A stretch of DNA of 64,000 nt, taken from NCBI GenBank assembly GCA_008632985.1, contig QPGO01000177.1, positions 1-64,000 of the forward strand, given 5' to 3'. The DNA is from Psammoneis japonica. Taxonomy: Eukaryota. The notes below the pieces were generated by a model. The model searched no databases. It was given only the letters and a program-made list of their open reading frames with translations, and was not told the origin of the DNA. The translations under genes and the position numbers were made by a program. How positions within the stretch are numbered: position 1 is the stretch's first letter; each line of letters begins with the position of its first letter. This document shows positions 4,507 to 42,488 of the stretch, piece after piece.

Positions 4507-5418
4507 ATGCCATGGCTGTTGAAGGCATGGGTTTGGAAGGTTGCTTCAACGTGTGTGAATCGAGAGAGAAAACTTGTTCCAATCTCCATTGCTCGATGTC
4601 ATGCCGGGGTCAAAGTGCGTGTGATTCATTGACGCAAGGATGCACACAGATTGCTTGCAATGACAAAGAGAGTGTTCAATCATGGAGGAAAGGCTCTCAG
4701 ATGTCAAACGGTTGGTGTGAGGTCTTGTGGGGTCCACAATGCAAAACGGAGCTTGGTCTAGGATCACTTTGATGGATTGTGTGTCCGCAGGGTCTGCTGT
4801 GCAGGGTGGGATTGCTCCATTGATGAGATGTGAGCAAAACAAGTCCACAAAGTTTGTCTTGGGGATCGCATGCTCGGAGTCTTCAAAAAATGGGTCTAAG
4901 TCACAGACAGCATCCGCACAAAGCACATTCAAAGATGCATGGACATGGGGTGGAGAAGCATGTGGTTGGAACTCGCAACGGATCTCTGTGATGGATGTCG
5001 GAGGAGGGTTTGTGCCGCTCGGAGACACCATGGTTGGACCTGGTGGAAGCATTTTTGGTCATGCACACTCAGAAATCTGGCATGTTTCTACGATCGTGAA
5101 AAATGCCGGGAAAGCAAGAAAAAAGTTGTTTCAGGAACAGACAATGAGGCTTGCTCAATCGGCTCACAAAACAAATGAATCAAAACAGAAAGTGCGGCAC
5201 AGAGGTCTGTGGCAAAGCACAAGGCCACAACCTGACAGAGTGCCGATGGTCAATGCCAATGGAGGTGTGAAAGACTCCCCAAGCAGCAGGACTGTGACAA
5301 CACGAGTGCTGCTAGAAGAGAATGAGAGACAGATCTCAGAGAGATCTGGTCATCTGTCTAAAATGGTCTGTCCATCATCCACACACAGTCTGTCCATCAT
5401 GGAGTGGGCAGACTGACA
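4507..5418 (-). mobile_element. 5' end of a second copy of the same copia family (5' LTR 5233-5418, PBS-like site, start of gag-like ORF), interrupted by the + strand copy
   Basis: Reverse-complement LTR followed on the minus strand by GGTTGTGGCC, resembling the copia-type GGTTATGGGCC primer site, then ORF 4546..5052. Confidence 0.75.
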
Positions 5419-5856
5419 CCTGGTTTGCCATGCCGCAAAACAGAAGCTGAGTTGCATGGCTTCAGCAAAGGAGTGAGTGCAGATGCATCTGTGCTTCCCA
5501 AGGTCTCTTGGACTGTTGTTCTTACATCCAGCTTTACAGGTGCATTCTGCTGCGCAACAAAGTCCTTCTAATTTGTGGCACTTTGAGCTGAACAAAGAGC
5601 CACAATGTCAATCGATCGATTGCCATCTCCATCCTGGCAGATGGCAACTGCAGGTCTGCTGCAGTGTCAAGGAAGGAGGAGTTGTCACTTCCACTCAAAC
5701 TGTGAGTGAGTGCTGCCACTGTCGCTCACACTCTCCATCGAGAGTCCATGCGTCAACCGTTCTTTGTGCACGAGCTCGCATGCACCCAAAGGTCTCCTCA
5801 CAGACTCTCAAAGAATTCAAACGGATGATGTGCCAGGGTCACATGTGGGCATGTGT

Positions 5857-5996
5857 TCTTCTGGTGCTCTTGCAGATTCCACATGCAGAACATGCACCAA
5901 AGAAATTTTCCATGCACAATTCCACATGCAGCAAAACACACCAGAATTTTTTTTGGAGCACAATCTACACACGGGATCTGCAAGAGCACCGGAAGA
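5857..5996. repeat. Small foldback/MITE-like element with ~53 bp imperfect inverted arms
   Basis: TCTTCTGGTGCTCTTGCAGATTCC... at 5857 pairs with ...GGGATCTGCAAGAGCACCGGAAGA ending at 5996. Confidence 0.65.
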
Positions 5997-6832
5997 CACC
6001 ATCCATCTGAATTCCATGAGAGTCCATGTGGAGACCTGGGTGTGCAAAGCACGTGATGGAGAGTGACTTGCTCACCGCAAGCGCACGTTCTCCAACACCA
6101 CCAAGTGAATCCAGCTGCACGATGGCTCAGCCACTCACAGCACCAGTGTGACAATGATGTGACAATCCAAAGATGCTCTGCTTGTCCTGCTGCTAGAAAC
6201 CATGGACCCTCTCAACACTTCTTTGGTCACATCACTCTTCAACATGGCCACCCTGAAAGCATCCATCCCTCTGCTTCATGGGGCCAACCATCCCGATTGT
6301 CTCCACAAATGATGGACCACAAAATTCAGGAAACCCTCTTGGCTCGCAACACCAAGGTGATCATCCATTGACAAGCACCCAAGTGCTCAAGTGAAGAAGC
6401 TGCAGAGAGGCAGTGAGGAGTTGACTCATGTGAACATCACATGGATCAAAAGCATGAACGTGATGGTGTTCCTGTCTGAACAAGGAACAAGAAACCTTTT
6501 TCTAGAATCCCTGGACTTTGTGAGGTTGAGTTTCCTGATGGATCCTCTGACACCTTTGCTGTTTACACAGTCAAAGAAAACATGCACCAACTCTGAGGGC
6601 AACTCAATCATAGTCGTACTTACTTGCAAGTGGCCAGTGTGGCGCACGTGGGTGGGGCGGGGACGGGAGGACAAGAAGCACAACATCAATGGCGATGATG
6701 TCAATGGTGCACTGGTGGGGGAGGCTGCCACACCACGCCTTCTGATGGATTGACTTGCTTGAACGACTTGAGAGAAGAAATTTGAGCATGTGTGAGGGTG
6801 TAAATGCAGCAGTCTAGACATCCTTAGTTGTT

Positions 6833-8721: not shown

Positions 8722-9259
8722 GTAAGGACTGAGGCGAGCGCGCCGCGGCTACACGAAGTTGTCAGTCCCGCCCACTCGTGACTCAGTACATTTCTACGGT
8801 GAAAATTGCGTACCGGTAGGAATCCGAAGATGACAAAAACGGTCAGATAACTTCCGCTAACTACAATATGAACTGCACCTAATGTACATTCTTTGTTCGT
8901 TGATTGTTGAATTAACTATTTTAGGCGTTACATGCAGTTACTTTGACGAATTGGAAGTCATCCGAAACAAACCACGAATCGTACGGAGTGCCGTGGATTT
9001 GTACGCAATACAGTGCTTAGCGTTATTTTGGCGAAATTCATCAAAGTAACTGCATCTAACGCTTAAAGGTGTTAATTCATGTATAAAAGAACATGGAATG
9101 AACATTAGGTGCATTTCATATTGTAGTTAGCGGAAGTTATCTGACCGTTTCTGTCATCTTCGGATTCCTACGCAATTTTCACCGTAGAAATGTACTGAGT
9201 CACGAGTGGGCGGGACTGACAACTTCGTGTAGCCGCGGCGCGCTCGCGTCAGTCCTTAC
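8722..9259. mobile_element. Foldback/MITE-like non-autonomous element with ~225 bp inverted arms
   Basis: 8722-~8952 is the near-perfect reverse complement of ~9035-9259 (GTAAGGACTGA...TCAGTCCTTAC); no ORF. Confidence 0.85.
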
Positions 9260-9660
9260 GAGTTGTGTTCGCGTTGTTTTTTTAGCGACGCATGCCACCG
9301 CGCGCAAAAGAAGTCTGGCTGCTGGCTGGAATGCCAACAAAGTCCGGAATTTCGCGAACGCGCGTGCAGTTTTTCAGTCTTGGAAATTTTGAATTTCAGA
9401 GTCTTTTTAGACGTTGCCTCGTTTTGCGACTCGGCTCAAGCTCAATGTCACTCACAGATCTCAATGGACTGTTGCGAGCATTTCGCCCCTGGTTGTTGCT
9501 GACGCGTTCCAGATGCAGGTGGGAATGCGTGTGACATTGGGCCCGTAGACTTCTGCGTGCGAGCTCCGCAGTAAAATCACACGGTGATTAAAATGTCAAT
9601 GATCGCCAACAGAAAATGAGGCAATTTTGCGAACGCACAAACTCGCACATGATTGAAGTG

Positions 9661-9896
9661 CTCCTCGCACCCAAGTTTAGATGGAGACACACCGTGCGAT
9701 GCAAGACTCCCCAACTGACAAGACCTTAGACTCATGCCCTCTCCAGGAGCGGGTGCTCCTGGACCAAGATGCCTGGTCATTGTGACCAGTCAAACTCATC
9801 GGTTTTCTTCTTGTCACTTTTCCATTCTTTGTTGAGACAGGAACCCTGATCAACGTGACTGGATCATGCCAAAGCAGTGGAAAAGCTTCTTTTTGC
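9661..9896 (+). repeat. Split direct repeat A1
   Basis: Near-identical to 18073-18310. Confidence 0.95.
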
Positions 9897-9916
9897 TCCC
9901 TCTCTTTCTCTCCCTC

Positions 9917-12387
9917 ATGTCTGATTGCTTCTCCTCCGGCATCGATGACGGTGCCTTCGTCAACTTCGCTCGCACGCTCGAGGCGGATGTCATTTCCCCG
10001 TTTTCGTCTCGCTCTCCCTCGTCGCCCGCTTCTCGGGCCCCACCGTCTGCGGTGGGTCATCAGGGGGGGGTTGAGCACTTAAACCCCTCACTTGGGGGGT
10101 TAAATCTTGGAGAAATGTCTGGTGGCACCGGACATTCGGACATCGAGCGGGCGGAATTGGGGGAAGTCATTTCCCCGAACCCGGATTTGGCATTCAACGC
10201 TTTGCCATCGAGGGCAGGCATTGGATCGGAAGAGCGTGCACCTCGCATTGATTTCTTCGCATCGAAAGATGAGGGAGCCTCTCGGGGTGCGTCTGGAACG
10301 AAGGAGGAAGGTGCGTCTCCTTCGTCTGATGCACCTCGTTTTCGTGTCGTGTGGATGGAAGGGACAGACAATTCCCGTTGCATGGGTGTCATTGGCGGTG
10401 GCGCCACTTTCTGTTTCAAGAAATCCACCGATTGCAAGGTGAAACACAAAGGTTCCAAGAAAGGTCTTCCGTCGAGCGGCATGGTGTCGATTTTGAAGAC
10501 TCCGGATACAGCGTTTTGCCAACCTACTTTGGACGGATCGTTCGTGTCAGCGGAAGTGTTGGTGAAGTGGGAGGCCACCACAGACACCCCAGCGGGATGG
10601 TGCCAAAAGTTCCTCGTCCTGGAGAGCAGCGAAACTCGCTGCCCCACGGAGGACCAGTTCGGTGCTTCCTTAAAACAGCACAAGGAGGCCGCGGCTTTCA
10701 AGACCCCAGCCAGGAGGAAAGATCCTCACAATGAAGGCTTTCCGGGACCACTGTTCGGGCGATTCTCGCCTTGTCAACCAGTGATTTCCACCACCCCATC
10801 CCAGTTCCTCGCGGCAAACAAGAGCCCTGCAGCACTGGCGCGTGTGGTCCAATCGGTTGAACGCAACCTTACGGAGACGGGCAACACGCTTTGTGATCTA
10901 GGGAACCGGGCCTGCGCGCAGTTCAAGGAGACGGATTCCCTCATCAACGTTCTCAGTCGAAAGTTAGAGCAGCTCAACGCCTCTCTGGGTTCCCCTCCGC
11001 CGGAATTGGACCAGCGCGTGGAGGCCCCGACGATTTGGGGAACTCTCGCAACTTGTCAGCGGTCGGGGCGTCGGATCGACTGCCTCACGATTTCTCAACG
11101 GAATTGTCTCGTGTGGAGAGCAACGTTCGGGCTAGCTCCAATGACCTGGCTTTAAAAGTCAACTCAGCCATTCAGGGACTACAAGCCCAAATGTCTGGGT
11201 TGGCTGCTAAACGGGGTGTGGACTCGCTGAGAGCAGGAGTCTTGAGAGTGTGCAACCAGCTGGTCGGCAGAGTCCAGAATCTGGAAAACTCCGGAGTCTC
11301 TGGCACAACTGGCCTGGGCGGCGGCACAGGGACCGGTCTTTCGGCATCACTCGAGAATTGGATCCGGGACATCGGCCAAGCGGTGAACGATTTAAAATCC
11401 AAGTCGGACTCATCGGCAATCAAGTTCTCGGGGGCAGGAGTGTCGTCCTTTGGCGAATGTCAAGCTTGGATGGTCCAACATTTCTCGTCCAGAGCGCATG
11501 GATGCCTCACGGATGCTAACTTGCTGTTGGACAGGATTGCGGGTGTCGAGCCCGCTGCTTTGCATCACTTCTTGGCGGGTTTGTCCAAGCGGATGGACCT
11601 GAAAATTAGCACCGAAGAAGACGCGAGAACCCCATCCAGCTTCCAGCATGGCATGCCAAGGATTCTAGACTCAGGGTCGGCAAAAGGTGCCCAGTCACCG
11701 GGTTTGCATCCTTCGTTCCTGGATAAGGTGGGAACGCACGACCAGTGGACGACCGGATCGACCGGCACCAAACACTTCATCATGGAAAGGATTGGTGCGG
11801 TCGAGAGGAACATTCTGAGTGACATCGATCAGAGGATTCCGGGCGGGTCTTTCGAGGGTCAGGTAGTTCGAGATGCGCTGTCAAAGTCGGTGTCTTTCAC
11901 ACGGGGTTTGATCCAATTTATGGATGAAACCTGCGACAACTTAGTCCAGTTGAGCAAGTTTTCACACAAGCAAGCGTGGTCGTTGACGTCAAAGCTGGTG
12001 CACCGTATTTTTGATGATCTGAATCAGGTTCGGTCGGGAGTCTTCACCTCAATTGCCGGGACGGATCCGGACGCAGTCTGCAGCCAAATCCTCTGGGCGG
12101 TTTTTCGCTCCCAGGACGTGATGGCTGAGCACACGGCCCACAACTTTAGGGACCACCCGTCGATGGCCTCGGAGTGCGTCAAATTTCTGGCGACAAACTC
12201 TGGATTCGAGGCAGTGACCGCTCTTCAAGCCACTGTAACAACTTTGACGGACAAAGCTGAGAACGCTGGGACGGAGGCAAAGTCAGCGCAGGCTCGGGCG
12301 GACACGGCTCACCAAGAGATCAACAAGCTTAAGACGGAGTTGAAGGAAGTCAACAGGCGCCTCAAGGCTTTAGAATCCAAAAAATGA
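9917..12387 (+). pseudogene. ORF1 (gag-like) of the YR retrotransposon, frameshifted near 11050-11100
   Basis: ORFs 9866..11155 and 11035..12387 overlap; Cys/His cluster CMGVIGGGATFCFKKSTDCKVKH; C-terminal coiled coil. Confidence 0.75.
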
Positions 12388-12393
12388 AATTCG

Positions 12394-15300
12394 GTGGGGG
12401 AGGAGGTGCCGCCGGGTGAAAAGAAAGGGCTCGCCATTCACGGGCGGAAAGTTTTTTCCTTCCACGGGTCTTGCTTGATTGTTTGCACTGGCCCCCCCAT
12501 TTGGCTCTTGTCTCTGAGGTGCTCCGAATGGTCCCGTGTCGTTTTGTGTTGCGACAATGAAGTCCCAACTCTGTTGGAGAGTGTTGTCATAAATCTGTTT
12601 GAAACCCAACCGGGTGCTTCCCTCCAGCGCATCTCATCGACCTGCATTGCCGAGGCGTCCAAATCTAGCGACGTTGTGCTAGTCTCTGGGGACCCAGCGT
12701 TTTTGGAGCGGATCTCGCGTTTGGACTGCGAGTCCCCCATGTACTTGGCCCCAGTCGGACGTTTTTCGAGACGAAGCTTGAAGGGCTTACAACACCTGCC
12801 GGGCACTGCCCTCACCCACACGGGGGTTGGTGGCGTCACAACCTTTCGGACGTCTCTGTTCAGCGTTGGTGCCTCACTCCCTGCCTCTGTTCGTGGGTTG
12901 GACCGCACCATTGGGCATGTCATTGACTGCAAGCTGGAGGGACCGGCTGGTTCCCCAGATCCTTTGGATGCAGTCTACAAGGAAGGTGATTGCTTGAGCC
13001 CTCAATTCCCCCACCGGCCTGTGTTGCACCAATCTCATCGATCTCGCACGGGGTGGATTTTAAGGAGTTTGAGCGCGGATGAACTCCTGGCCGCTTGGGA
13101 CTTCCCTCTCCGATTTCGGACCCAACATCTTTCACCTCTGGCATCTGGGGAGACTTTGAGGCTGTTGATCCCGCTCAATCTTCTCACTGCGGTGACGGAC
13201 CATTTCATTGTGCAACGCTCTCGGGGTGCGTCGGAAATCCCAGCACCGGTCCCGGCTCACAGGTCGGGCTCGGTTCGTGCGCCGGCAACTGCCACTTGGT
13301 TGCCGGGCTTGGGCAGATGCCCATCTCATGAGTGGATTGATCTGACTCTTGTTGCTGCCAAGGCGGCAAAAGGTGACTCTGCACTGCCACCATTTCGACA
13401 AGCGCACAACTCTTTTGTTTCCCACGTTTGGGCCTGCCCTCCCAGCTCTGCGAGATCTCGCTCTTCGTTGGTGGCGGCGGCGATTAACACGCTCCTTCTT
13501 GGCACATTTACGGCGGACTCATGGCCTTGATTGGCCCTCTCGGCTGGGGAACTGGCGGCGGCAGTTTGGGGACTCCTTGTCGAGTCATCGGGGGGGGGGG
13601 GGGTTGTGCCGCGATCCACCGCTCCCATCCTCATTGTTGGACGGGCACCTTGGTGCCAACGTTCTCTCTCAGACTCTGGCAAGTTCTTGGTGGACCTGGG
13701 ACCGGGGGTCGTCTCTTTTCTTTTGGCGTTGGCCCTCGCCCGAGCGATGCCAGGCGGCCCGGGATGGGCTCCCCACATTTGTCCGGGGCACCCTCCCCCG
13801 GAACCGCAAGCGGCAGCGCGTTCGTGGCTCGACCGTTGAGGTTCAGCGCATGGCAACCAAGATTCAGAAGGTCCGGGACCATGGCTGCATAGAAATTGGC
13901 CCAGTGACAAGCCTCACTGATTGCTTCTGGGTGCCCAAGACTGTGTCCCTGATCCCAAGTGGGGACGGAAGGATGGAGGAAGTGATCGAAGACATTAGAG
14001 TGGTGTGCAACGGCACCTCTTCTGGTCTCAATGACGCTCCATGGGCCCCCTCCTTTTTCCTTCCCACTGCGGCGTCGGTGCTTGGCTGCATGGCTGTCTC
14101 TACATTTTCCATTGACTTGGATCTCGGGGACATGTTCTTAAATTTTTTTTGTGGATCCCCAAATTTGTCCGCATGCCGGGATCGACTTGTCACCGCTTCG
14201 AGCTCATCTCCCACGTCCGACGGGGAACGCATCTCCAGTCGGCGTGGAACGGTGGAACAGACTTTTTATGGGGATGAAGCCCAGCCCTTGTGACGCGGTG
14301 CGAACACACTGCTGGGCGGACGAAGTGGCGTGTGGCGACCCCAACCGCCCTGGAAATCCAATGGGGTTCGACAAAGTCTTGCTCAACCTGCCAGGAGACC
14401 CAAATTACAGAGTTCAGGACCCCTTCGTAATCAAATGGAACTCTGTTTCAAGGGCCATTGCCGGCGACATCAAAACCTTCGTCGACGACTTGAGAGGCAT
14501 GGGACCCAGTGAAGAGGCGGCTTGGCAAGTGGCCCATCAAATGGCGTCCTGCCTTCAACACCTCGGGCTCCAGAACGCCCCTCGTAAGGTCCGCCCACCT
14601 TCGCAGCGAGAGACTGGTGCCTGGGCGGGGGCAATCTTTCACGTCCTTGGCCCGAATGTCACTCAATCACTTTCTCAAGCCAAGTGGGACAAGGCCAAGG
14701 GCATCATCGAGTCCCTCCTGGGGCACTACGACGGGGTGGACGAATTGGCCCTCCTGGAATTTGAGTTCAAGGACCTCGAGAGGAAGCGTGGTTTTCTAGT
14801 TCATGCGGCCATGACCTGCCCTTTCCCAACCCCCTTCCTCAAAGGGATCCACTTAACCTTGGACAGTTGGCGTCCCAACCGGAAGGAGGACGGGTGGGCC
14901 ATGTCTGACAAGGAATGCGCATCATGGATTCATCATGAAGCGGCGAAGCTTGATGTCGATCCATGCGACATCGCCGAGACCCTTCGTGGTGGCCAGCACC
15001 CTGAGTCTGTTCGGGGAGCACCACGTTTAGCTTCAGATTTGAAAGCACTGCAACGAATTCTCGAGCCCGAAAAACCAACAGCAAGGATTGTCCGATCGTC
15101 TAAGGTGGCGGTGGTCCTGCATGGTTTTGGCGACGCGTCTGGCAAAGGTCTGGGATCCTCGGTCCAGACCAGGGACGGTGCAATCCTGTTCCGGATTGGC
15201 GTCTGGGGTGATGACGACCAGTCAAACTCGTCGAACTGGAAAGAGCTGTCAAACACAATTGATGCGATCCAGGAACTGGCCGAAGCGGGCGAACTCGAAG

Positions 15301-16160
15301 GAGCCACCCCACATTTTTTCACTGACAACTCAGTCTCAGAAATCGCCGTGTGTGAAGGAACCTCATCTAACCCAAAGCTCCTGCAACAGGTGATTCGGAT
15401 GAGGGTGCTCGAAGCCAAGCACGGCTTCATTCTGCACCTCATCCATGTGTCGGGCAAACGGATGACAGCCCAGGGCACAGATGGTGCATCACGAGGTGTG
15501 CCAACAGAAGGGGTTGTGAATGGGGCCAGCATGCTCTCCTTCGTTCCTCTTCACCTTGCCGCAACCGAGCGAGCCCCCTTGCTGTTAGAGTGGATACGTT
15601 CCTGGACGGGAGCGCCCACGGCAGAACTGCTCTCGCCCCTCAACTGGTGCCAGAAGGGACATGATGTATCTGGGTGGACCTGCCCGCCTTACGAAGCAGT
15701 CGAGATGCCCGAGTTCAGGTCGGGGACTTGGGTGTGGGCTCCTCCCCCAGCCGTGGCGAGGACAGCACTCGAGGAACTAAGAATTGCCCGGCTCAAGCAT
15801 CAGAGCTCATTTCACATCTTTGTGTGTCCCCGCCTCATGACCCCCGAGTGGCAAAAGCAATTGCACAAGGCAGCAGACCTTGTGTTTCCGGTGCCAGCTG
15901 GAGCAGGGCCCTTTTGGCCTGACGACATGTTCGAACCCCTTCTCATCGGTCTTGTTTTTCCCTTCATCTCACACAGTCCGTGGCAGCTCCGAGGAACCCC
16001 TGAGATGTGCTCTATGGACCGGACGCTGCGAAGAGTGTGGGAGGATGTTGAAGTGGACTCGCGGACTGTTTTGCGCAAAATTTTGTGCACAGTGTCGGGG
16101 ACTGGCCCGCGTGCCGCAAGGCTTGGTGTCCCGGGTGTTGTGCTTCGAGCGCAAGCGTGA
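12394..16160 (+). pseudogene. pol of the YR retrotransposon: N-terminal extra domain, RT, RNaseH, C-terminal methylase-like remnant; frameshifts at ~13400 and ~14150
   Basis: DLDLGDMFLNF, MGMKPSP, FVDD (RT); FGDASG, SSNWKEL, FTDN, HVSGKRM..QGTDG.SRG (RNaseH); WVWAPPP after RNaseH. Confidence 0.9.
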
Positions 16161-17545
16161 CCTTCCATCCAGGCGGGATTCTTCAACCCGACCAACAAAA
16201 CGACGAAGAAGCGCAGGCCGTTGAGGGTGCCGCCCGAATCGAGGACAACACATGGTTTCGGAAGCCCCAGGACGAATGCAAGTTCACCCGTGCGCGAACG
16301 GGAGACCATCTGATGGCAGCCTTCGAGTGCGATCATTGCATCTTTCATAAGTTGCATCACAGAGACCCGGGAACCTCTTCTCCATGCGACGAGATGGCAC
16401 TGGCGTGCATCAGACGAGATAACTTGGACGCGCTCTGGAGCAGAGAAAGCTCTTCGGTGGAAAACAACGCCTCCAAGGTGGGGCGGGGATTGGCTCTGTC
16501 GGAACGGTTGGGGCTTCACGGCCCCCACCTAGAACCAGGCCCTCTCCCTCCACATGACCATTGTGGTTGCGAGGTGGCAATGCAGATCGTCTTGGCCTCG
16601 ACCTCTCCGGGACGGCACTCGGAGTCCCACACACAGTTCGACACAATCAGGAAGCTCCGGACTGCATGCTCCAACCAGGTGAGGGCATCAGCGTCCGCTA
16701 ACTCACGAGCTCTTGCCTTAGCAGATCTCGAGGGGAAGCAACACCTCCGGATGTGCGAGGATCCGTGTGCCTCTTTGTGGTTTCAGAGGTTCATGACGGG
16801 ATGCAAGAGGCGAATGGGTCAGGACTGGAGACCCGACAGGGCCATTTCAGCCCAGATCATGCAACACCTCCTTCCAAGGATCGAAGAAAAATTTCTCCGA
16901 GCCACAACCGTTGGGGACCGGTTCAAACACTTGACTGGTGGGTTCTACTTTGCAGCAAGCTTCACGCTCTCCCTCCGAGGTCCCGAAGGGCTGCTTGTTG
17001 ATCTGGGGGCTCTGAGGGAGCACCTCCCTCGCCACGCTTTGCACGTGGTGATCCCATTGCTTGGTCGAGTTAAGGGAGAACACGGGGAGCGGCAGCACCT
17101 GCTGCCAAGTGTGAATGTCACTGGATCCGGCATCCGGATCCGCGAGTGGGCCCAATCGGTCGCATCGTTGCATGCTTCAAGAGGACGCACCCAAGGACCC
17201 GCCATGTCTGATGCTGAGGGCAAGGTAATTCCCACCAGGGACCTAAACTCCCTCCTTCACCTTGTTTTGTCAGAGCTGTTCGACGACCACCCGGCTTTGT
17301 TTGGAACTGACATCACCTCCCATGACGACATCGAGGATAAGTGCGACGTGTGCAGGTCATTTAGACGGGGGTCCGATTCCCGAGCCATTTCTTGAAACGT
17401 GTCAGAAGATGACACAGACGTGGTGAATCGATGGAAGAAGAAGGAATGAGCTGGTGCGGCGAGACCTGCACACAAGATGAGACAGCACTGTGCTGACACA
17501 TCACTGCTGCTCCCTTCTTTCTTGAGATGCACACAGGAAATGTGA
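16085..17545 (+). pseudogene. Tyrosine recombinase of the YR retrotransposon
   Basis: LSLRGPEG, GRVKGE, RSFRRG motifs; frame continues through TGA at 17393 and 17447 (likely CGA>TGA) to MRQHCAD and a stop at 17543-17545. Confidence 0.88.
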
Positions 17546-17630
17546 GTCGACACCATCAACTCGATTCCGACTGCTCAAGTTTCAAGACCTTTTCTTCAGG
17601 TGGCCACTGCCGGGGAGTTCTCATCGGGGG

Positions 17631-18072
17631 GGATTTGTGCTCAACTTTGCTGGCGCGACCACGGGAGTCTACCGGCAAAGTCTAGAAGGGCACCTGCCAC
17701 GACCTGCTCATGATGACGCGTGACTGCGAATGCAAGAAAACAGCGTCTGGCGTTGCCTGCGGTCCCGGTTTGAAACTCACCTTGTGCAAGGCACCGATGT
17801 TGCAAAATGCCGAAGGCACCTTGGTCTAGGTTCAGCTGGGAGCGCCCTGAGTGGATCCCAGCAGGCCCCATTCGTGAGCCCTCGAGTTCAGACTCGAGAC
17901 CCTGCGGAGGGTGTGGGTTCACCCAACCCCCCTTGTGCGGAGCAGAGCATTGCCGAAAGCTCTGCTCTGTGAGACTCCCAAGTGCACTGATGCCAAGTTT
18001 CTTCTTGGTGGTTCTTGGCGCGGCAGTCCAGGACTGTGCCAGATTGGAATTGGCGGCGCACAATGTCGAATC
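17631..18072 (+). repeat. Split direct repeat B1
   Basis: Near-identical to 18330-18772. Confidence 0.95.
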
Positions 18073-18310
18073 CTCCTCGCACCCAAGTTTAGATGGAGAC
18101 GTGCCATGCGATGCAAGACTCCCCAACTGACAAGACCTTAGACTTGTGCCCTCTCCAGGAGCGGGTGCTCCTGGACCAAGATGCCTGGTCATTGTGACAC
18201 CAGTCAAACTCATCGGTTTTCTTCTTGTCACTTTTCCATTCTTTGTTGAGACAGGAACCCTGATCAACGTGACTGGATCATGCCAAAGCAGTGGAAAAGC
18301 TTCTTTTTGC
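18073..18310 (+). repeat. Split direct repeat A2
   Basis: Near-identical to 9661-9896; abuts B1. Confidence 0.95.
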
Positions 18311-18329
18311 AACCCACCCACCACTCCCT

Positions 18330-18772
18330 GGATTTGTGCTCAACTTTGCTGGTGCGACCACGGGAGTCTACCGGCAAAGTCTAGAAGGGCACCTGCCACG
18401 ACCTGCTCATGATGACGCGCGACTGCGAATGCAAGAAAACAGCGTCTGGCGTTGCCTGCGGTCCCGGTTTGAAACTCACCTTGTGCAAGGCACCGACGTT
18501 GCGAAATGCCGAAGGCACCTTGGTCTAGGTTCAGCCGGGAGCACCCTGAGTGGATCCTGGCAGGCCCCATTCGCGAGCCCTCGAGTTCAGACTCGAGACC
18601 CTGCGGAGGGCATGGGTTTGCCCAACCCCCCTTGTGCGGAGCAGAGCATTGCCGAAAGCTCTACTCCACGAGACTCCTGAGCATGCCAACACCAAGTTTC
18701 TTCTTAGTGGTTCTTGGCGCGGCAGTCTAGGACTGTGCCAGATTGGAATTGGCGGCGCACAATGTCGAATCC
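18330..18772 (+). repeat. Split direct repeat B2
   Basis: Near-identical to 17631-18072. Confidence 0.95.
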
Positions 18773-19007
18773 ATCATTTTTTACTTAGCCAGTTACATTC
18801 TTCAGACATTGAAGAATGTAACTGGCGCATCATTGTTTCTATAAATTTGTCACATAAAACGTCTGGGGCTTCGCAAAACAGCGAGTCTGGACAATTTTTT
18901 TTAAATATCACACGTAGAAATCTACGTACGAAACATACGACGGATGATAAAAATTATTGTTGTCACACGTCAGTGCTACGAGCTCCCACCTAGGGCTGGA
19001 ACGCGTC

Positions 19008-20892
19008 TGCTGTTGATCTCACAATCATGTGCGTGGAAGCAATCAAGATTGACAACAGAGCGGGGGCAGACTTTTTTGGTTCAAAGCTGTTGAAAAGGAG
19101 GAGGTGTGCAATGTCATGCCTGCATTTGAGTTCCAAGATGATGATGTTGTGCCGGTCGGGTGCAAACACATCAGTTGTCACACGGCATTTGACACTGAAA
19201 GCACCCTCCAGTGCAAAGCAAGGTTTGTGGCTGGAGGCCATCAGACTGATCCACCCAAGGAATTGACCTGTTCCAGTGTGGTGTCACATGACAGTGCAAG
19301 GACAGCCTTTGCTGTTGCAGCTCTGAATGACCTGGAGGTCTTGAGCACAGATGTTCAGAGTGCTCACATCTGAGTGCACACACTGAGGAGAAGTGTCGTT
19401 CTGCTGCTGGGCTGGAGTTTGGCGCAAGCAGGACCAAGGGAGGCCAGCTGTTGTTGTCTGAGCCTTGCATCTCTTAAATTGTCAGGTGCACAATTTGGGG
19501 AGCACATGGCTGCAACTTTGCATGACACTGGATTTGAGTCATGCAAAGCTGATCCAGATGTCTGGATGAGAACAGCAGTCAAGCCTGACAGCTTCAAGTG
19601 CTGGGAACGTGCACTTGTCCATGTGGATGATTTCTTGATGTGCATCTCCCATGGCCCTCAGAAAGGCATGGACTGTGTGAGCTCCATGTCTGGGCACACA
19701 TTGAAGGATGGAAGTGTCTGCAAACCAGAAGAGTGCCCAGGAGCACAAATCAGAAAGTGTCAGCTGTCTGATGTGGAAGGCAAGATGTGCTTGGTTGTGT
19801 CCTCTGACTTGTGTGTCAAAGCAGAGCCTGAGAAAAGTGACTGGCACATTCCAACAAAGGTGTCGACACCCTTGCACCTGGGGCACTGGCCTGAACTGGA
19901 CAGTTCACAGGAATTGAGGGCCAAAATGGCAAATTGTTTCCAAGGCCATTGTTGCTGTTGATCTCACAATCATGTGCGTGGAAGCAATCAAGATTGACAA
20001 CAGAGTGGGGGCAGACTTTTTTGGTTCAAAGCTGTTGAAAAGGAGGAGGTGCACAATGTTGTGCCTGCATTTGAGTTCCAAGATGATGTTGTGCCAGTCG
20101 GGTGCAAACACATCAGTTGTCACATGGCATTTGACATTGAGAGCACCCTCCAGTGCAAAGCAAGGTTTGTGGCTGGAGGCCATCAGACTGATCCACCCAA
20201 GGAATTGACCTGTTCCAGTGTGGTGTCACATGACAGTGCAAGGACAGCCTTTGCTGTTGCAGCTCTGAATGACCTGGAGGTCTTGAGCACAGATGTTCAG
20301 AGTGCTCACATCTGAGTGCACACACTGAGGAGAAGTGTTGTTCTGCTGCTGGGCTGGAGTTTGGCAAGCAGGACCTGACCAAGGGAGGCCAGCTGTTGTT
20401 GTCTGAGCCTTGCATCTCTTAAATTGTCAGGTGCACAATTTGGGGAGCACATGACTGCAACTTTGCATGACACTGGATTTGAGTCATGCAAAGCTGATCC
20501 AGATGTCTGGATGAGAACAGCAGTCAAGCCTGACAGCTTCAAGTGCTGGGAACGTGCACTTGTCCATGTGGATGATTTCTTGATGTGCATCTCCTGTGGC
20601 CCTCAGAAAGGCATGGACTGTGTGAGCTCCACGTCTGGGCACACATTGAAGGATGGAAGTGTCTGCAAACCAGAAGAGCGCCCAGGAGCACAAATCAGAA
20701 AGTGCCAGCTGTCTGATGTGGAAGGCAAGACATGCTGGGTTGTGTCCTCTGGCTTGTGTGTCAAAGCAGAGCCTGAGAAAACTGACTGGCACATTCCAAC
20801 AAAGGTGTCGACACCCTTGCACCTGGGGCACTGGCCTGAACTGGACAGTTCACAGGAATTGAGGGCCAAAATGGCAAATTATTTCCAAGGCC
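19008..20892 (+). repeat. ~940 bp tandem duplication of the RT segment (19008-19947 / 19953-20892)
   Basis: Both copies begin TGCTGTTGATCTCACAATC and end TTTCCAAGGCC. Confidence 0.95.
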
Positions 20893-21711
20893 TCATGGGG
20901 TGCTCTGATGGGCAGTTGAGCTTTCTTTGATGAGACTTGGTTTGCAAAGTGTTGCCAGAGACATGTGTGAGTGGCATGACCACCACTTGCTTTGATGATG
21001 CCAATCATGATGGATGCAATGTGATGCACAGGTCCCACACTGGGATCCTGACATTCAACCAGCAAGTGCCCATCTTGTGCTGCTCCAAACAGCAGAATGC
21101 TGCAGAGTCATCTGCTTTGGGTCAGAGCTCATGGCAATGAAGACTGCCATGGAGCAGATTGAAGCCTTGCAATGCAAGCTTTGCATTCTGGGCATCCCTG
21201 TGGATGGGGCCACGAATGTCTTTTGCAACAAAATGAAACTGTCTTCAAGAGTTCAACTGGATTGGAGTCTAAGTTGAAGAAGAAGCACAGTGCAATTGCG
21301 TGCCACATGACCCACGAGGAACAGGCTGCAGGGATTGTGTACATTGCTTGTGCAGGAATTTGGCAGATGCACCAACTGAGTTGTTGCCTGGACCAAAGCT
21401 CCAGGAGACCACAAGTCACATCTTGTGGTGAGCCCCAAAAGGGGACAAACTGAGGGTTTGCCACCTGGACATGGCTTTTTCCCATCCCCAAACTGAACTT
21501 GTCCTGGAACAAGGTGGCATCAGGTTTACAATTGTCTGTCAATCTGACCTGAGTGGAGCCAGCATCAGTTCAAGGGGACTGAACAAATGCTGATGTGCTG
21601 TCACACATGATGTGAGCTGTTGTTTGCTGTTGGTGACAGGCCCACCATCGCTGACACAGCGGCCCCAGCAGCATGCATGACTCACAATCTAGAACCTGTT
21701 GATGCTGTTCA
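19008..21711 (+). mobile_element. 5'-truncated, heavily decayed Ty1/copia of a second family (RT duplicated, RNaseH, short 3' LTR)
   Basis: KARFVAGGH, TCSSVVS, ADPDVWMR, HVDD, DANH, SKQQNAAESS, LKKKHSAIACH; PPT AAGGGGA then TGAACA...TGTTCA (21580-21711) as candidate LTR. Confidence 0.88.
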
Positions 21712-22900
21712 ACACTCTTTTTTCTGTCCAATTCTCAGCTGTCATGGCAGCATTTGTTTGGGCTGCCGGCGCATGCAAAGAGCTGCCAGTCAGAGCGCAG
21801 CAGCACACTTGAGTGCACTGCTTGCTGCTCCTCTCTCTCAAGCATCTTTCAAGCCCCACCCAACCACACAATGCTGCCTCTCTGACTTTGTTGTGTTGCT
21901 GCCAAGACAAAAAATGTCTTGACAGAGATGTGTTTTCTTCAAGACTTGGTGCCTGCTGCCTGGCTCCCTTTGCTGTGTGACAGAGCAGCACAAATCACAA
22001 AGAACAAATCAACTGATTGATCTGCTGGCTCTGCACACAACAAAAAATTGTGCTCTGCTCATCTCAGCTTCCAATGGAATTCTTGAGCACAATGGGGGTG
22101 AGCTTTTGGAGATGCCTGAGCTTGCCTCCAGTGTTCTTTTTTTGCAACTGTCAAGATGGCGCAGTTGACAAAACATCAACACAATGGCTCAAAAAAGAGC
22201 AAGCTTGGCACCCTGTGGTCTTGTCACAGTGTTTTCACCCAAGCATCAGGAGGAGACATGCACAAAACTGTGCTCATTCTCAAAGAAGCTGCAAAGAGGC
22301 ACTTGTCAAATCAAGTGCTGCACAACCCTTCAAGTCAACCAACAACTCTGTTGCTGTGAACGACATGAGATGGTGGGGTTTGATGACCTGTGACTCCTGG
22401 CCCCTTGTTCTGCAGGTCTCTGATGAGCTCCTTACGGCACTTTCACAGGATGTGACATTGGCACCAGATGTGTTGTGACAAGCAGTGCTGAAGCTCCTCA
22501 TCACATCAATTTGCTGCATGGCTGCCACACCCACTTTCCATGAGATTGGTCGTCATGATTCCATGCATCAACCACTGCGTGTGTGGGTTTTCCATGTGCC
22601 CAGCACCACCAGGGTTGCCACACAGCACTCCCAAAGACTTCAGATGAGCAAAATGTGTGCCAGGGTTGCACCATGTGGTGGGTGGTGGGTGCCACAGCAA
22701 GGTTGCTGTGCATGATGGAAGACAACAGACTGCCATGGCAAGTGCGCTCTCTTTGTGCGACAGTGTCCACTTTGTTGACAGTTGAGCAGCAGCCACAGTG
22801 CCTGCAGATTGTCCACCAACCATGGGGCTTCAAAAGGACTGCAGCTGCATCTCAAATGTCATGGTGCACCGCATGACATCATTCTCACTTTTGTCATCAT
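21712..22900. other. TpA/CpG-depleted decayed sequence of unknown class
   Basis: Same composition as the adjacent TE relics; no recognisable domain. Confidence 0.45.
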
Positions 22901-23101
22901 TTCTTGTGCTTGCGTCTTTCTCAACATTCCCGTCCGTCCGTCCATTCTCGGCTGAACGTCCAGGTGGCAACACGCGCCCTACTCAATTCACGTAATTTCT
23001 ACGCAATGACTTACCTACGTAGATTCTTGTACAAACCGTATGCAGACAGATGTTCTGAATTTTTCTGAAAGACTTATGTACATTGCTTGCAACGCACTAC
23101 C

Positions 23102-25159
23102 ATGGCGTCTTCTTCCATCATGATGAGGGACGTGGGTCCCCGTGCCAAGTGTGATTCTGTCATTTATGAAGCCGTCGCCAAGGCTTGTGAAATTGTGGTC
23201 TCGTCACGATGTCCTCCAGGCGCCACACGAACGACTCCGTCGTCATCGTCTCGGTTTAATTTGCAAATGCCCGAGTATCCCGATGTGCGCAAAACGCTTG
23301 CTCCTCTCAAGCGCAGTTTGCATGTCCCGCTGAGACTGGATGTATGCTATCAAACAACGAGTGAGAATCATCAAAAACAATTGTTGGAGAGGTGGTGTAT
23401 CGAGTATGCTCCGTGTCATGCCGCGTTTTTTCAGGAAGAGTGCTCGAGTCTCGATCCGTTGGTGCAGTTGCGTCATGTCTGTAAGAAGCTGGTGCTGTGG
23501 TTACGGACACTTTATTGTACCAGTCACTTGTTGCCTTGCAAACGCTCAAACAAGTTACATTTCAGTATCTACGTTAGTGATTCATCGAATCAGGACGCGC
23601 TAGAATTGCAGCGGAATATGCAATTTGCGCAGCACGTGCATTCGTCCGTATACACGCCGTATGGACGATTGGAATTGCAAGTGCTACATGCTCCGCGACA
23701 AGCAGTGGCGCACTTGTTTCCCAAGCAACCCACAGCTCGATGGACGACGGCTGTACAGAATAGCAATGTCAACCGAAAGTCAGCTTCTCGGCCGATTCCA
23801 ACCACCAGACAACCCTGGAACAATAATAGCTCTTCTCCGAACCGTTACCAGATGCGACTGCAGCAGCAACAGCAAGTTGCACCCCAATCGGCACCAGCAC
23901 ATATATCCATTATTCCGAATTATACCGCCAGTCCAAGTCAAAGCAATGGCATAATGCAAGCACCAACACCACCGTCCTCGAGACCGCAAGCGGGACTGCG
24001 GGCCACAAGTTACAAATCGCCCATTGTTGAGCAACGGCATGCTCGACCTGTTGTAACAAGGACGCAGTCGGCCCTGAGCGATCGTGAAATTCAGTATCAA
24101 CAGCCATTACGAGAGGAACCGCAACAACAACAAGACGAAGAAAACAACAAGGGAACAACAAAGCAGAAACGTGTCTTGAGTGGTTTGAGCTTGGCACTCA
24201 TGAATGCCGAAGAAGAACAGCAGCAGCAGCAAGCAACTCCACTACCCTCGTCGACCGAGTTTCAACATTCGTCTCCTCCATCACCCCGTGTGGTGGAACA
24301 GCGTCGTGCAGCACTTCATCACGCTCCTCCTCTCTTGACTGAACATTCTAGTGATTATGGGTATGCTTACAATAACCATATCCCGCAACTGAGCAAGTCT
24401 CCGACCACGAGTGAATTACAGCAGCAGCAGCAGCAGGCAAGTCCCGCCTTGGGAAGCACTCCACCACAGCCCATGTTTTGTGTTGGTAGTACTAGACCAG
24501 CCGCTCCATCACCCCTCTTGATTCCGCCACTCTCCTCGAAAAAGCAAAATAATGAAGCCGGTGTTGCACCCCCCTTTGCGGCTCTCCCCACAACGTTGGG
24601 TGAAACACCCAAGGTGGCACAACAACCCATGGTGTTGTCCAATCCTCCACCACCCCTGGCGGTACCACCACACCAGGGACCACCCATTTCGTCTTTGGAT
24701 TTGTTGCACTCATCACCCTTTCAACAACAAAATTCCATTCTAAGCAGTTTGAGTGGAACGGAACATTTTGCGTCTCAATCCGAAAGTTTGATGCGATCTG
24801 GAATGCAGGCAGCAGACGACTTTTATTATCCACATTATCAACTCGAACAAGATGACATGCCGTTTGCCATTGCCGAACAACAAGCACCACCACAGCAGCA
24901 ACAACCAGAAGATTTGGGTGCATCTGCAGCATTGGCACACAAGTGTGCCACGGCGGGACGGCTCAAACTGTTTGACAGTACGACCATTGTGGTCAAGAAG
25001 AAGAGGAGAAAATCCAATAATAACGATAACGCTGCCATGAATTCCTTGGCGCTGCAATTGGAGGGATTTCGATCCTTTGGAGCATCCCTGACACCCGCCG
25101 CAGGCGATGCCGAGACGGCAACAAGCTCGACATCCACACCCATTTCACTCAAGACGTGA
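23102..25159 (+). CDS. ATG13: Autophagy-related protein 13 (N-terminal HORMA domain, disordered Q/P/S-rich tail)
   Basis: KACEIVVSSR, RFNL, LLERWCIEY, KKLVLWLRTLY...LLP motifs; C-terminal DDMPFA. Confidence 0.85.
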   Translation: MASSSIMMRDVGPRAKCDSVIYEAVAKACEIVVSSRCPPGATRTTPSSSSRFNLQMPEYPDVRKTLAPLKRSLHVPLRLDVCYQTTSENHQKQLLERWCIEYAPCHAAFFQEECSSLDPLVQLRHVCKKLVLWLRTLYCTSHLLPCKRSNKLHFSIYVSDSSNQDALELQRNMQFAQHVHSSVYTPYGRLELQVLHAPRQAVAHLFPKQPTARWTTAVQNSNVNRKSASRPIPTTRQPWNNNSSSPNRYQMRLQQQQQVAPQSAPAHISIIPNYTASPSQSNGIMQAPTPPSSRPQAGLRATSYKSPIVEQRHARPVVTRTQSALSDREIQYQQPLREEPQQQQDEENNKGTTKQKRVLSGLSLALMNAEEEQQQQQATPLPSSTEFQHSSPPSPRVVEQRRAALHHAPPLLTEHSSDYGYAYNNHIPQLSKSPTTSELQQQQQQASPALGSTPPQPMFCVGSTRPAAPSPLLIPPLSSKKQNNEAGVAPPFAALPTTLGETPKVAQQPMVLSNPPPPLAVPPHQGPPISSLDLLHSSPFQQQNSILSSLSGTEHFASQSESLMRSGMQAADDFYYPHYQLEQDDMPFAIAEQQAPPQQQQPEDLGASAALAHKCATAGRLKLFDSTTIVVKKKRRKSNNNDNAAMNSLALQLEGFRSFGASLTPAAGDAETATSSTSTPISLKT

Positions 25160-29954: not shown

Positions 29955-31177
29955 CTAGGATCGCCCAATGGTGTTGAATATGTCGTAGACAGATGCAGCG
30001 GCTCCAATGACACCAGAGACAATGCCAATGAAAAGCAACATGTATTCGAGCATTCGCTTGGCTGTCGCTCCTTCCGTGAAATGCAGTGCCAACAAGGAAG
30101 GAATGATCAATGCCGTGATGGCACCTGCAATCCCTCCTGCCAGCCCAATGAGTTGGGTGACATTGGGTATCACCGCAGCAACTATAACCGTCGCTGATAC
30201 TAGCGATAATCGCAAAATAGGCGTGTCGTAAGGTCCATACGCCAGCTCCCCTCCCCACCAATGTTCCGTTTCTATCGGCGGTTCCAAGGAATCATGCACT
30301 TGCATGCTTCTCAACATGGCTTGACACCACAATTCAATGCTAGGAAAAATGCTCAAGGCATATGTAAGCAAAATAGCGGCACTTGCAAGTAAATTGGCGA
30401 CAACCACCAGGACGTAACCATTGTATTCATCCGCGCGAGACATTAAAAAGGACGTAATGCTGCCCGAATCAACCTGTCCAAGAACCCAGACGCAGGAACC
30501 ACCAATCAAAGCATAAAGCACTGTGATTACGACGTAGGTGTATGTGAAGAGTGAAGTAAAGGGCGTTCGATCAATCATGCTTGCTTCGAGAGGAAGGACA
30601 ATGCAAATGCCTTCAAACGCGTACAGAATACCGCAAATCGCAATTGGCAATTGACTCCAGGTCACACTCGTCAGCACCTCTACCGAGCCATTGTAGTAGT
30701 TTTCGCCCAAAAGCACAGCCAAAAGTATCAAGGCTCCCATGAAAATTCCCATGCTGCAACCTGCAACCATCAACCATACCGTACCGCATCGACTCACCCA
30801 TCACAATAAAACACAGCCTCCACAACCCCAACTAAACGATAATGAAGGTGGTAGGAGTCAGCGCCTTGGCGGTGCAACTGTTTCTGTGGACCCCCTCGGC
30901 TTCTCAGGCTTTTGTCGTCGGATTCCTCCCGNTCTGTAATATCATTATCCGCTTCCATCATGATTCCAGTCTTATTTTCTTGTAATTCGATTTTATCTCG
31001 CGCCATCAGATCGGTTACTTCTTCCGCCATGATGCTTCCATAATCGTTGTTGCTCTCGTCTCGCAAAGCCGCGTTTGACGACTCCCGTCCTGAAACGCTT
31101 GTTCCTGGCTCTCGTTGATCCTTCTGATCCCGTCTTCGCCTTATCGGGCAAGTAAGCCATTTTATTGGTTTTGCCAT
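29955..31177 (-). CDS. Amino-acid transporter (Aa_trans/SLC36-like); middle missing at the N gap
   Basis: GILYAFEGICIVLPLEASM, GSIT, IGLAGG...ALIIP and several TM helices; hydrophilic N-terminus beyond the N at 30932. Confidence 0.8.
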
Positions 31178-31514
31178 GGTCAAATCGAGAAGATAGAGCA
31201 ACTATAAGCTATAAGAGAGCCATAGTTTAGGTGGTGGTGGTGGGAATGGTAGGTAATAGGTGGCCGTTCTCAGTTGTTCTCATCCCCGTTGCCCATTTCA
31301 CATTCCACTTCGCAGAAGAAAAAACCTCAAAACGGATTCGATTAATCCGACTCAACCGACATGAAGCACACAAAAAAGATTCGTCATGCGATCACCTCAA
31401 AGCTTGCAGTTTAGTTGTAGTAGTGCTGCAACCTGCAACCATCAACCATACCGTACCGCATCGACTCACCCATCACAATAAAACACAGCCTCCACAACCC
31501 CAACTAACCCGATA

Positions 31515-32533
31515 ATGAAGGTGGTAGGAGTCAGCGCCTTGGCGGTGCAACTGTTTCTGTGGACCCCCTCGGCTTCTCAGGCTTTTGTCGTCGGATTCCT
31601 CCCGACGACCACGAGCCTGATCAGGAGGGCGAGTAGTACTAGCGAGATTCCATTGCTGTTTGCTGCAACGGATGAGCCAAAAAATGAGGTGTTGGGGGGA
31701 ACAGTCGAAGAGGAACCAAAGTGTTTGATTGGAAGGCGATCCATATTGACGCTGCCCTTTCAAGCCACTCTCATTGAGCAAATCTTGTCCTGTAGTCCAG
31801 CCAAGGCGGCAAGTGACGGATTTTTACCGTCAACGATGATTCAGGGGACTGCGGACGTAAACGACCTGCTGGAAGACAATGGCTTTCTTCCTGGCTTTTA
31901 TGGCATTATCCCTGCTATTTCGCTGGAGCAGAAACTCTACGAGTTGTCCCAACGTCTCCCTAAAAGACCTTCGAATCCGGTTAAGCTTCAGAACAACCCT
32001 GGTGGTGGAGACTGTGCATTCTATTCCATTGTCATTTCATTGGTTCACGAAAACCTGGGAGTCACGATACGATATCCAAATCATCTGGAAAGGTTACGAT
32101 ATGCTTCTTGGGACCTCCGTCAGAAAGCTGTGCGCCGTCTTAGCCAACAAGACTTACCCATCTATTTATGGGGGAACGAATACATGGGAACAGGACAGCT
32201 ACTGGAGGCAGCAGCCCACCACCATGGATTGAGCGCCTTGGAATACCTCGGTTGGATGGAGCAACCCCATGTGTGGGGCGGCGGACCCGAGTTTGTAGCA
32301 TTGTCCAATGTACTTGAGCAACCCATTCATATCTATAATTTGGTATCTATGACTGACGGGTCTTTTGCATTGGACAGAGTCGCTGCCTGTGGAAGTCCTC
32401 GGTGGGATGACAAACAAGCCCTTCACGTCCTGTGTGGTGATGGTCGTTTCCAAACATTGAACCAGGGGAGGAACTGAGAGTTGGGGATCATTTTTGGACC
32501 GTATTTCCTGACTGGGAATCCACGGAAATCTGA
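31515..32533 (+). CDS. OTU-like cysteine protease with signal peptide + AF leader; 1-nt frameshift at ~32450
   Basis: PGGGDCAFYS, WGGGPEFVALSNVL..PIHIY; His motif GDHF lies in the adjacent frame, which ends at 32533. Confidence 0.75.
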
Positions 32534-35071: not shown

Positions 35072-35814
35072 GGTGTTGCGTTGATTGTGATGCTGTCAAA
35101 CTGGAAAGAAAACTCTCAACGCTAACGGACTCAACGGTCCAGCCGTTATTTTTAAAAATTACAGTATGTTAGCGAATGAATCATAAAGATTGATGGCATT
35201 TTCAGTCTTGTTTAGTAAGAAGCATGATCACCTCGACGACTTTGCACCTTGTGTAGTAGAAACGAGGAGCTGCAGAGTCTTCTACTGTATTCAATCGAAC
35301 AAGCGCATTTCGAAGGAAGCCAAAGACAGCGGTAAAGCGCCCGGCGTTCCAAAATTCCAAGAGCAATTGTGAAATGGAATCGACACGTGCGCGTCCGAAA
35401 GGAAACGTGCTTGACAACAGCCCATGCGACAAGCATTTCTGGATCATGCTTCATTGCGCCCCTGCAATGAACAGTGGAATAAAGTGTAAAAGGTATACAG
35501 TGATTAAATATGAAAAGCGTGTTTTCCTTCTCCATGCACACTTTATGGGCACAGAATGAGGCTACCAATGCCTCAGAACAAGCAACAGCGTTGCACCCAA
35601 GGCCCGTGGTATTCACGAATAAATCAGCGTTAGGCAACCGTCCAGCCGTACACCGTGCCAGAGTCATTTGCGTAATAGATCTCTGCAGTCACTCCGTCAA
35701 AATCCAGGGGATGCCGCAAAGTAGTCTGTTCCATCAGCCGTATCTTGGTGGAGTGGATAATGGCAGGGTCAGACTCGGTACTCTCGTCATGAGAAAGCAC
35801 AGCTCTCATAAGCA

Positions 35815-42275: not shown

Positions 42276-42488
42276 AACACGCAAAGACATGGCTTCTTAC
42301 CTTCGTCATGGCCACCACAATTTCATCGTAGTGAAACTAAGGCACTGTCGAATAGAAAGAGCATCAACGCTAGTAGAAAGACTTGTAAGTTGCTAGTAAT
42401 ATGGTAGTAGCTACTAGCAGATGGAATAAAGTATCCCTTTGAAAGCGAAGCAATAATAAGACATAACCCATCCCTTGAGGAAGTATTT

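Follow-up and report, generated by a model that had tools for sequence, protein, structure and literature searches.

The 64-kb window analysed here, that is, the whole stretch of 64,000 nucleotides, carries at positions 9661–18772 a retroelement with split direct repeats, and this work concerns the mutations that separate the copies of these repeats. Judging from its layout, its protein relatives and a predicted fold, the element is a DIRS-order (Ngaro/PAT-like) tyrosine-recombinase retrotransposon. Its parts follow each other on the plus strand in the order A1-ORFs-B1-A2-B2, with six long open reading frames (ORFs) within 9836–17395. The 5'-most of the split direct repeats, A1, spans 9661–9896 and is 96.6% identical over 238 columns to the internal copy A2 at 18073–18310. 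The other repeat is 443 bp long and is present as B1 (17631–18073) and B2 (18330–18772); the initial annotation had named these copies A1+B1 and A2+B2. The B1-A2 part is internal and lies downstream of the recombinase frame, as the definition of DIRS-order elements with split direct repeats requires.

The upstream frames (9836–11155, 10897–12387, 12388–13530 and 13346–14293, all plus strand) matched no Pfam family at E ≤ 0.01, and the region 12500–14100 is also matched by relatives in tblastn searches. For the plus-strand frame 14142–16160 (672 aa) we found 400 relatives at E ≤ 0.001, the best of them 49% identical and the named ones from pennate diatoms. Pfam gave no match to this frame itself; two of its relatives (P0003 and P0016) match RVT_1 below the 29.6-bit cut-off (E of 1.9e-5 and 0.0025; 24.9 and 18 bits), and its translation contains F-V-D-D, which may be the polymerase motif of a reverse transcriptase. 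The plus-strand frame 16052–17395 (447 aa) had 2,411 relatives at E ≤ 0.001. Its family had no match in Pfam, and a profile search of the PDB sequences reached a best E of 0.11; therefore, a fold search was needed. The structure was modelled from the family alignment for the closest relative (49% identical) and not for the window's own mutated frame. The model had a predicted local distance difference test score (pLDDT) of 85, and Foldseek matched it to XerH, Cre and lambda integrase with probability 1.00 and template modelling (TM) scores of 0.37–0.53, which points to a tyrosine recombinase.

The layout, the putative reverse transcriptase and the predicted recombinase fold are those of Ngaro/PAT-type elements, and two relatives from metagenome contigs, L010 and L036, share the A1-B1-A2-B2 layout. 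A methyltransferase domain separates PAT from Ngaro. Pfam is blind to the window's own frames, however, and the element is not placed below the Ngaro/PAT-like level.

The ungapped alignment of B1 and B2 has 29 mismatches in 443 columns (93.5% identity) and no indels. All 29 are transitions, with 0 transversions, and every one lies within a pyrimidine-purine (YpR) dinucleotide, although such steps cover just 208 of the 443 columns (P = 3e-10). The mismatches comprise nine swaps with TG in one copy and CA in the other, six CG/TG pairs, two CG/CA pairs, two TG/TA pairs (at 17964 and 18007) and one CA/TA pair (at 18029). TG and CA states alternate within each copy. The TA count is 3 in B1 compared to 19.2 expected, and 6 in B2 compared to 19.1 expected. 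The initial annotation had described sister repeats differing by TG/CA swaps and loss of TA, a description that the alignment and the classes of mismatch bear out. The CTTGG/CTTAG and TCCAGG/TCTAGG pairs that it cited are both present. The dense cluster to which it drew attention does contain six swaps and one retained TA (a TG/TA pair), along with one TG/CG pair; its end in B1 had been placed at 18000, while the actual span is 17961–17994, opposite 18660–18693 in B2. Between the two copies of A (9661–9896 and 18073–18310) we found two CA/TG pairs, two CA/CG pairs, one 2-bp indel and nothing more. The A pair of the same element shows the pattern of the B pair.

A TG/CA swap could arise from methylated CpG decay alone, if all swap sites were once CG and were deaminated once per copy on opposite strands. 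Such decay covers the eight CG-vs-TG/CA pairs of the B pair, and diatom transposons are reported to be CpG-methylated (PMC9998398). The B pair also has 24 CG common to both copies, as well as three shared TA. Fitted to the unchanged and the single-hit CG, a CpG-only model gave p = 0.143 per copy and predicted 0.33 swaps in the B pair, compared to the nine seen (P = 1e-10). A regional difference in rate cannot rescue this model, since unchanged CGs (17905, 17938, 17954, 18019 and 18021) are interspersed with the swaps. CpG decay can neither remove TA nor account for the excess of swaps.

If the swaps are assigned to ancestral TA, the TA class of the B pair consists of the nine swaps, the three pairs of TA with TG or CA, and the three shared TAs. 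From this class we estimated, indirectly, that about 81% of TA sites would have been hit per B copy, which corresponds to about 1.67 hits per site. The respective figure for CpG is about 0.15 hits per site per copy, and the 235 columns of the B pair outside YpR steps show 0 changes.

The direction of change was read from conserved codons, with a column considered conserved at ≥70% agreement among ≥10 relatives (for the recombinase, 60% among ≥20). A copia-like pseudo-element on the plus strand at 184–4127, found by tblastn of 33 diatom-type copia polyproteins and carrying Pfam gag_pre-integrs and SH3_retrovirus matches, served for polarising; it was compared with 33 outgroup polyproteins over 629 conserved columns. 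None of its 27 conserved tyrosine columns is kept: 15 now read TGY (Y, pyrimidine), nine CAY, and one each CGC, CAG and TTC. The loss of Tyr compared to all other columns has P = 6e-18. Arginine survives in 21 of 47 columns, and 20 of the 26 losses are of the CpG type (TGY 7, CAY 8, CAA 3, TGA 2). The control columns are nearly all kept (Glu 22/22, Gly 51/55, His 26/28, Lys 20/21, Trp 13/14). Threonine changed to alanine (ACN to GCN) in 14 cases, with a T directly 5' in 13 of them; isoleucine changed to valine in six cases, five with a T directly 5'. Stop codons arose by CGA to TGA twice and by TGG to TGA once.

Similar losses are seen in the DIRS-like element. In the putative reverse-transcriptase frame one of seven Tyr columns is kept, with four TGY and two CAY, while Arg is kept in 26 of 29; in the recombinase frame the numbers are one of four for Tyr and 12 of 12 for Arg. 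Overall, this element keeps Tyr in 2 of 11 columns (TGY 6, CAY 2, TTC 1) and Arg in 38 of 41 (P = 3e-6). When both elements are pooled, 2 of 38 conserved Tyr survive, and 32 of the 38 are now TGY (21) or CAY (11). A host gene at 33284–35095, used as a control, keeps Tyr in 7 of 8 columns and Arg in 6 of 6; the difference in Tyr retention between transposons and the host gene has P = 5e-6.

Since TAY codons turned into both TGY and CAY, both strands were hit. The codon comparison indicates that A after T was changed to G on both strands, faster than CpG decay proceeds, and in transposons only. Decay of CpG cannot convert 32 of 38 TAY codons, nor would it give Thr-to-Ala changes only after T. 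The order of TGY and CAY along the copia-like element makes 13 runs by hand count, compared to about 12 expected by chance, and processive editing of a single strand is unlikely because the alternation is close to random. Selection for avoidance of TA and CG in active elements is ruled out because conserved Tyr and Arg are replaced and stop codons appear.

The loss of TA is confined to transposon DNA, as observed over the 64 1-kb bins of the window, in the host ORF used as a control and at a sharp edge. In the 1-kb bins of 1–5000, 19001–23000, 45001–46000, 57001–58000 and 60001–64000, the observed-to-expected ratio is 0.02–0.07 for TA and 0.08–0.52 for CG (0.8 in 57001–58000), while TG and CA are mostly at 1.6–2.1. 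The low CG ratio of these older transposon blocks is what CpG decay would leave. Bins outside the depleted blocks have TA at 0.4–0.85 and, in most, CG near 1. The DIRS-like element has a TA ratio of 0.18 (65 compared to 359 expected) and a CG ratio of 0.8. Between its end and the next transposon block lies a spacer of 235 bp (18773–19007) with normal TA (17, 21.4 expected), followed at 19008–19307 by 0 TA where 18.9 are expected, so that the edges of depletion are sharp at 18772/18773 and 19007/19008.

Taken as blocks, the TA-depleted DNA occupies 1–6800, 19008–23000, 45001–46300, 57001–58000 and 60001–64000, with TA at 0.02–0.2 and TG/CA mostly at 1.5–2.0. The G+C content is near 0.50 (0.49–0.51) except in 57001–58000 and 60001–61000. 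Only the block 1–6800 could be classified, as copia-like. A Pfam search of 14 open frames from the other depleted blocks found 0 families, and a relaxed tblastn with copia proteins gave nothing credible outside 184–4127; the segment 19053–19370 has a weak RVT_2 match (E 0.0047, 17 bits), below the cut-off. The 300 bp 5' of A1 (9361–9660) are poor in TA (4 compared to 20.1 expected) and have normal CG (20, 17.2 expected), and the left boundary of the element or of the mutated zone may lie beyond the A1 homology.

The TAs that survive in transposons are mostly preceded by a pyrimidine (45 of 53 and 60 of 76, compared to 524 of 1,257 outside transposons), a pattern suggesting that the reaction at TpA is favoured where a purine precedes the T. 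A T on their 3' side is rare (3 of 53 and 5 of 76, compared to 366 of 1,257 outside). The leading contexts among the survivors are TTAC, CTAA, TTAA, CTAG and TTAG, while ATA and TAT contexts are almost gone.

Repeats other than those of the DIRS-like element were also compared. A tandem duplication inside the TA-free block (19008–19947/19953–20892; period 945 bp, 96.6% identity) differs by five CG/TG, one CA/CG, four CA/TG and one TA/TG pairs, five other transitions and two transversions. An inverted pair, 4316–4506/5233–5420, has six CA/TG pairs. Outside transposons the repeats show an ordinary spectrum with many transversions; for example, 8722–9259 has 40 transversions and 10 other transitions. 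This segment and 56405–56949, about 540 bp each, match their own reverse complements over the full length (83% and 74%, respectively), and both lie outside the transposon blocks.

Long, unbroken host ORFs with normal dinucleotide content were found at 23069–25159 (plus strand, ATG13 domain), 33284–35095 (minus strand, amine-oxidase/retinol-saturase-like), 36386–39061 (minus strand, FG-GAP repeats) and 53735–56206 (minus strand, protein kinase). Proteins of Thalassiosirales diatoms are the closest to the gene at 33284–35095, at about 50% identity, and those of oomycetes come next; by such sequence relationships, the host is a stramenopile alga, probably a diatom. A dinoflagellate host had also been considered, but a search of the window for a spliced-leader motif had 0 matches. 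The single N of the window (30932) stands directly 3' of a 180-bp segment (30752–30931) that recurs 672 bp downstream at 31424–31604 with 98.9% identity, suggestive of a redundant join, or a gap, in the assembly. Short tandem arrays occur at 42487–42753 (132 bp x 2.0), 44119–44318 (75 bp x 2.7) and 60693–61049 (179 bp x 2.0).

Other copies of the element were sought in Logan contigs of a public sequencing run (run X1); these are contigs only, with variants dropped, and their depth sums all copies. Over 16500–18329, 219 contigs were placed at ≥80% likeness. The variant places number 431, of which 40 are listed, and each of these 40 differs from the window in at least about 63% of depth. The other copies have CG where the window shows single hits (17721, 17798, 17804 and 17837); thus, ordinary CpG decay runs alongside. 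At swap sites we observed T at 17920 (94% of depth), A at 17989 (78%) and A at 18103 (94%), and the partner changes at 17921, 17988 and 18102 are not among the 40 of 431 variant places listed. From these contigs, the swap sites 17920/1, 17988/9 and 18102/3 (the last in the A pair) appear to be TA in at least about 31%, 15% and 31% of depth, respectively. The initial annotation would have yielded to ordinary CpG decay had the family shown CG at the swaps; at the three swap sites examined, other copies appear instead to have TA. With the codon test, the CpG model and these copies together, its claim of post-insertion mutagenesis at a few dinucleotides, with swaps as double-hit TA or CG, is supported.

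Relatives in other data behave differently. Among 80 related elements from metagenome contigs none is depleted in TA (0.47–0.78); therefore, TA loss is not a property of the element family. Some of these relatives have a CG ratio as low as 0.18 and still keep TA at 0.6, a further point against CpG decay as the sole process, which we regard as very unlikely. No CA/TG pairs were found in the repeats of the metagenome relatives (26 pairs of ≥85% identity). No Tyr-poor copy was found among 154 database relatives (the lowest had 0.99% Tyr), and of the 14 pattern matches that came from scanning viral_contigs with the copia alignment, not one was confirmed. The contigs of relatives L006 (4660–9131, 2,236 bp), L025 (6826–8003, 578 bp) and L053 (83–1584, 743 bp) contain perfect tandem duplications that may be either real tandem copies or effects of assembly.

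The repeats of relatives also bear on whether the differences could be older than the insertion, with B1 and B2 unhomogenised in a master lineage, or with ADAR- or APOBEC-like editing of the RNA or cDNA during retrotransposition. There is no settled model for the replication of elements with split direct repeats, and the family has multiple copies that fall into diverged subfamilies, both of which leave room for such an origin. However, B2 is by definition an identical repeat of B1 (PMC4157794), and the A and B pairs of L010 and L036 are 99–100% identical, though metagenome assembly may collapse such repeats. Editing of RNA would be expected to give A-to-G on the sense strand only, while here both strands are affected, with 21 TGY and 11 CAY codons and states that alternate per copy. 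The non-retro tandem duplication at 19008–20892 and the inverted pair at 4316–5420 have CA/TG pairs as well. We think an origin before insertion quite improbable.

We consider it probable that most swaps derive from ancestral TA, with one hit per copy, and that the CG pairs come from methyl-CpG decay, so that two processes were at work. Several observations weigh against this. Independent choice of strand implies about nine hidden double hits in the same direction, and these would put the ancestral TA ratio of the B repeat at about 1.0, i.e., would make it TA-rich. The double hits in the 34-nt cluster are all opposite (6 of 6), which may be due to chance or to a regulatory patch rich in TA, or may hint that the two copies are coupled. 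Within the B pair, six of nine swaps have no individual polarisation, and TA at the three swap sites of run X1 was deduced from partner rows absent among the 40 of 431 places listed. With no TA loss in the 80 metagenome relatives, the signature belongs specifically to this genome, or else to its assembly. Run X1 contains only 70% of the 31-mers sampled from the element, and at 16964, 17040, 17804 and 17837 all placed contigs have CG where the window has CA or TG. Given these mismatches and the missing 31-mers, some letters of the window are unconfirmed.

The last observations would be expected of an artefact of consensus or base calling, in which modified TpA and CpG are misread on each strand and TG or CA is chosen randomly during assembly, the true repeats being identical and containing TA and CG. 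Two small sister runs of the same sample (X2 and X3), in which no contigs were placed, would fit noisy long reads, although the lack of contigs by itself says nothing either way. On the other hand, a 591-nt contig (k-mer depth 67) equals the window over 16500–16828 with 0 differences, along 329 TA-poor bp (TA 3, 13.4 expected) that include a Tyr-to-TGC codon at 16568, and 52 of the 219 placed contigs are ≥99% alike. No indels separate B1 from B2, open frames reach 672, 496 and 447 codons, and the sequence is accurate at homopolymers, where errors of long reads concentrate. The contigs drop one arm of each paralogue bubble, enough alone to explain the missing letters. In addition, Illumina sequencing of lines of a different alga, Bigelowiella natans, recorded this signature arising de novo, as reported in the compared parts of a preprint described below. 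An artefact of this kind seems to us unlikely.

Under the reading with two processes, both would be specific to dinucleotides and would have acted on both strands since this copy of the element was made. The fast one would turn TpA into TpG or CpA, that is, A into G with a 5' T on either strand, and in each copy it would have reached about 80% of TA sites. Both repeats would then have been hit at most sites that were TA in the ancestor, and half of the double hits would be visible as TG/CA swaps. The slower one would be the ordinary loss of CpG, which becomes TpG or CpA at a level of about 14% in each copy and yields the CG-vs-TG/CA pairs. The remaining positions are essentially unmutated, and the TA process is confined to transposons and halts at their edges. 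Older elements are nearly cleared of TA, with an end state rich in TG and CA at about 50% G+C. Of this reading, the data directly show the spectrum of sites, the direction of change, the limitation to transposons and the action on both strands.

The closest known case is that of B. natans. In the parts of the preprint compared here (Mettrop et al., bioRxiv 2026, 10.64898/2026.01.13.699255), two regions of integrated viral DNA took 231 of the 302 new mutations that arose in mutation-accumulation lines sequenced by Illumina; with a single exception, these were A-to-G or T-to-C changes on TpA, at about 1,000 times the background. Reverse-transcriptase and DDE domains were over-represented among coding sequences poor in TpA, and the authors proposed that an ADAT2-like adenine deaminase is responsible. 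Our literature search for a TpA-to-TpG/CpA signature found only this preprint and nothing on diatoms. Common to both systems is the conversion of TpA into TpG or CpA, on either strand and only in foreign or selfish DNA; the Tyr, Thr and Ile codon changes in the window have this specificity, i.e., A-to-G or T-to-C at TpA only. In B. natans the rate is orders of magnitude above background; the long-term trace, a loss of TpA and gain of CpA and TpG in 1-kb windows, is another shared trait. The systems differ in the host, a rhizarian (chlorarachniophyte) there and a stramenopile here, and in that the process was caught in mutation-accumulation lines there, while here it is known from scars alone. 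The targets in B. natans are one giant-virus insert and one virophage insert that still contain TpA (rho 0.45), whereas the retrotransposons here are nearly cleared of it (0.02–0.18). The CpG decay and the pyrimidine-T-A survivors seen here are described in none of the compared parts of the preprint.

Repeat-induced point mutation (RIP) of ascomycetes resembles the present case in being restricted to transitions, specific to a dinucleotide, post-insertion and active on both strands, with stops near the edges of repeats. RIP, however, turns CpA into TpA, with a gain of TA and a lower G+C, while here TA is lost and G+C is near 50%; the mutated blocks show no CpA-to-TpA change, TpA gain or AT enrichment. 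Diatoms have DNMT4 enzymes related to the RIP factor RID, with no known function (PMC9998398). Known methyl-CpG decay covers, besides the CG-vs-TG/CA pairs, the loss of CGN arginine codons.

By analogy with B. natans, the agent of the TpA changes may be a DNA adenine deaminase of the ADAT/TadA type with a preference for a 5' T. The CpG decay presumably stems from cytosine methylation of transposons, and the process would serve genome defence. We see an even chance that these parts together make up a transposon-directed defence by DNA editing. Working post-insertion and at over 250 times the background, such a defence would target TpA through adenine deamination (preferably with a purine before the T) and CpG through deamination of methylcytosine, and would drive retrotransposons towards a tyrosine-free, TG/CA-only state at about 50% G+C. 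The opposite outcomes in the cluster might then reflect a coupled event on two copies.

In elements mutated in this way, dating by repeat divergence would be badly wrong, and homology tools would overlook them, as may be the case for the 14 frames in which Pfam found no family. If the scars are real, TpA hypermutation of selfish DNA would extend beyond a single chlorarachniophyte to stramenopiles, where it would run to saturation on retrotransposons. The joint loss of TA and CG, the gain of TG and CA and the loss of tyrosine codons would then serve as a genomic marker, and an organism would be available for seeking the responsible deaminase. An adenine-directed counterpart of fungal RIP would, if this is true, be a wider strategy of eukaryotic genome defence.

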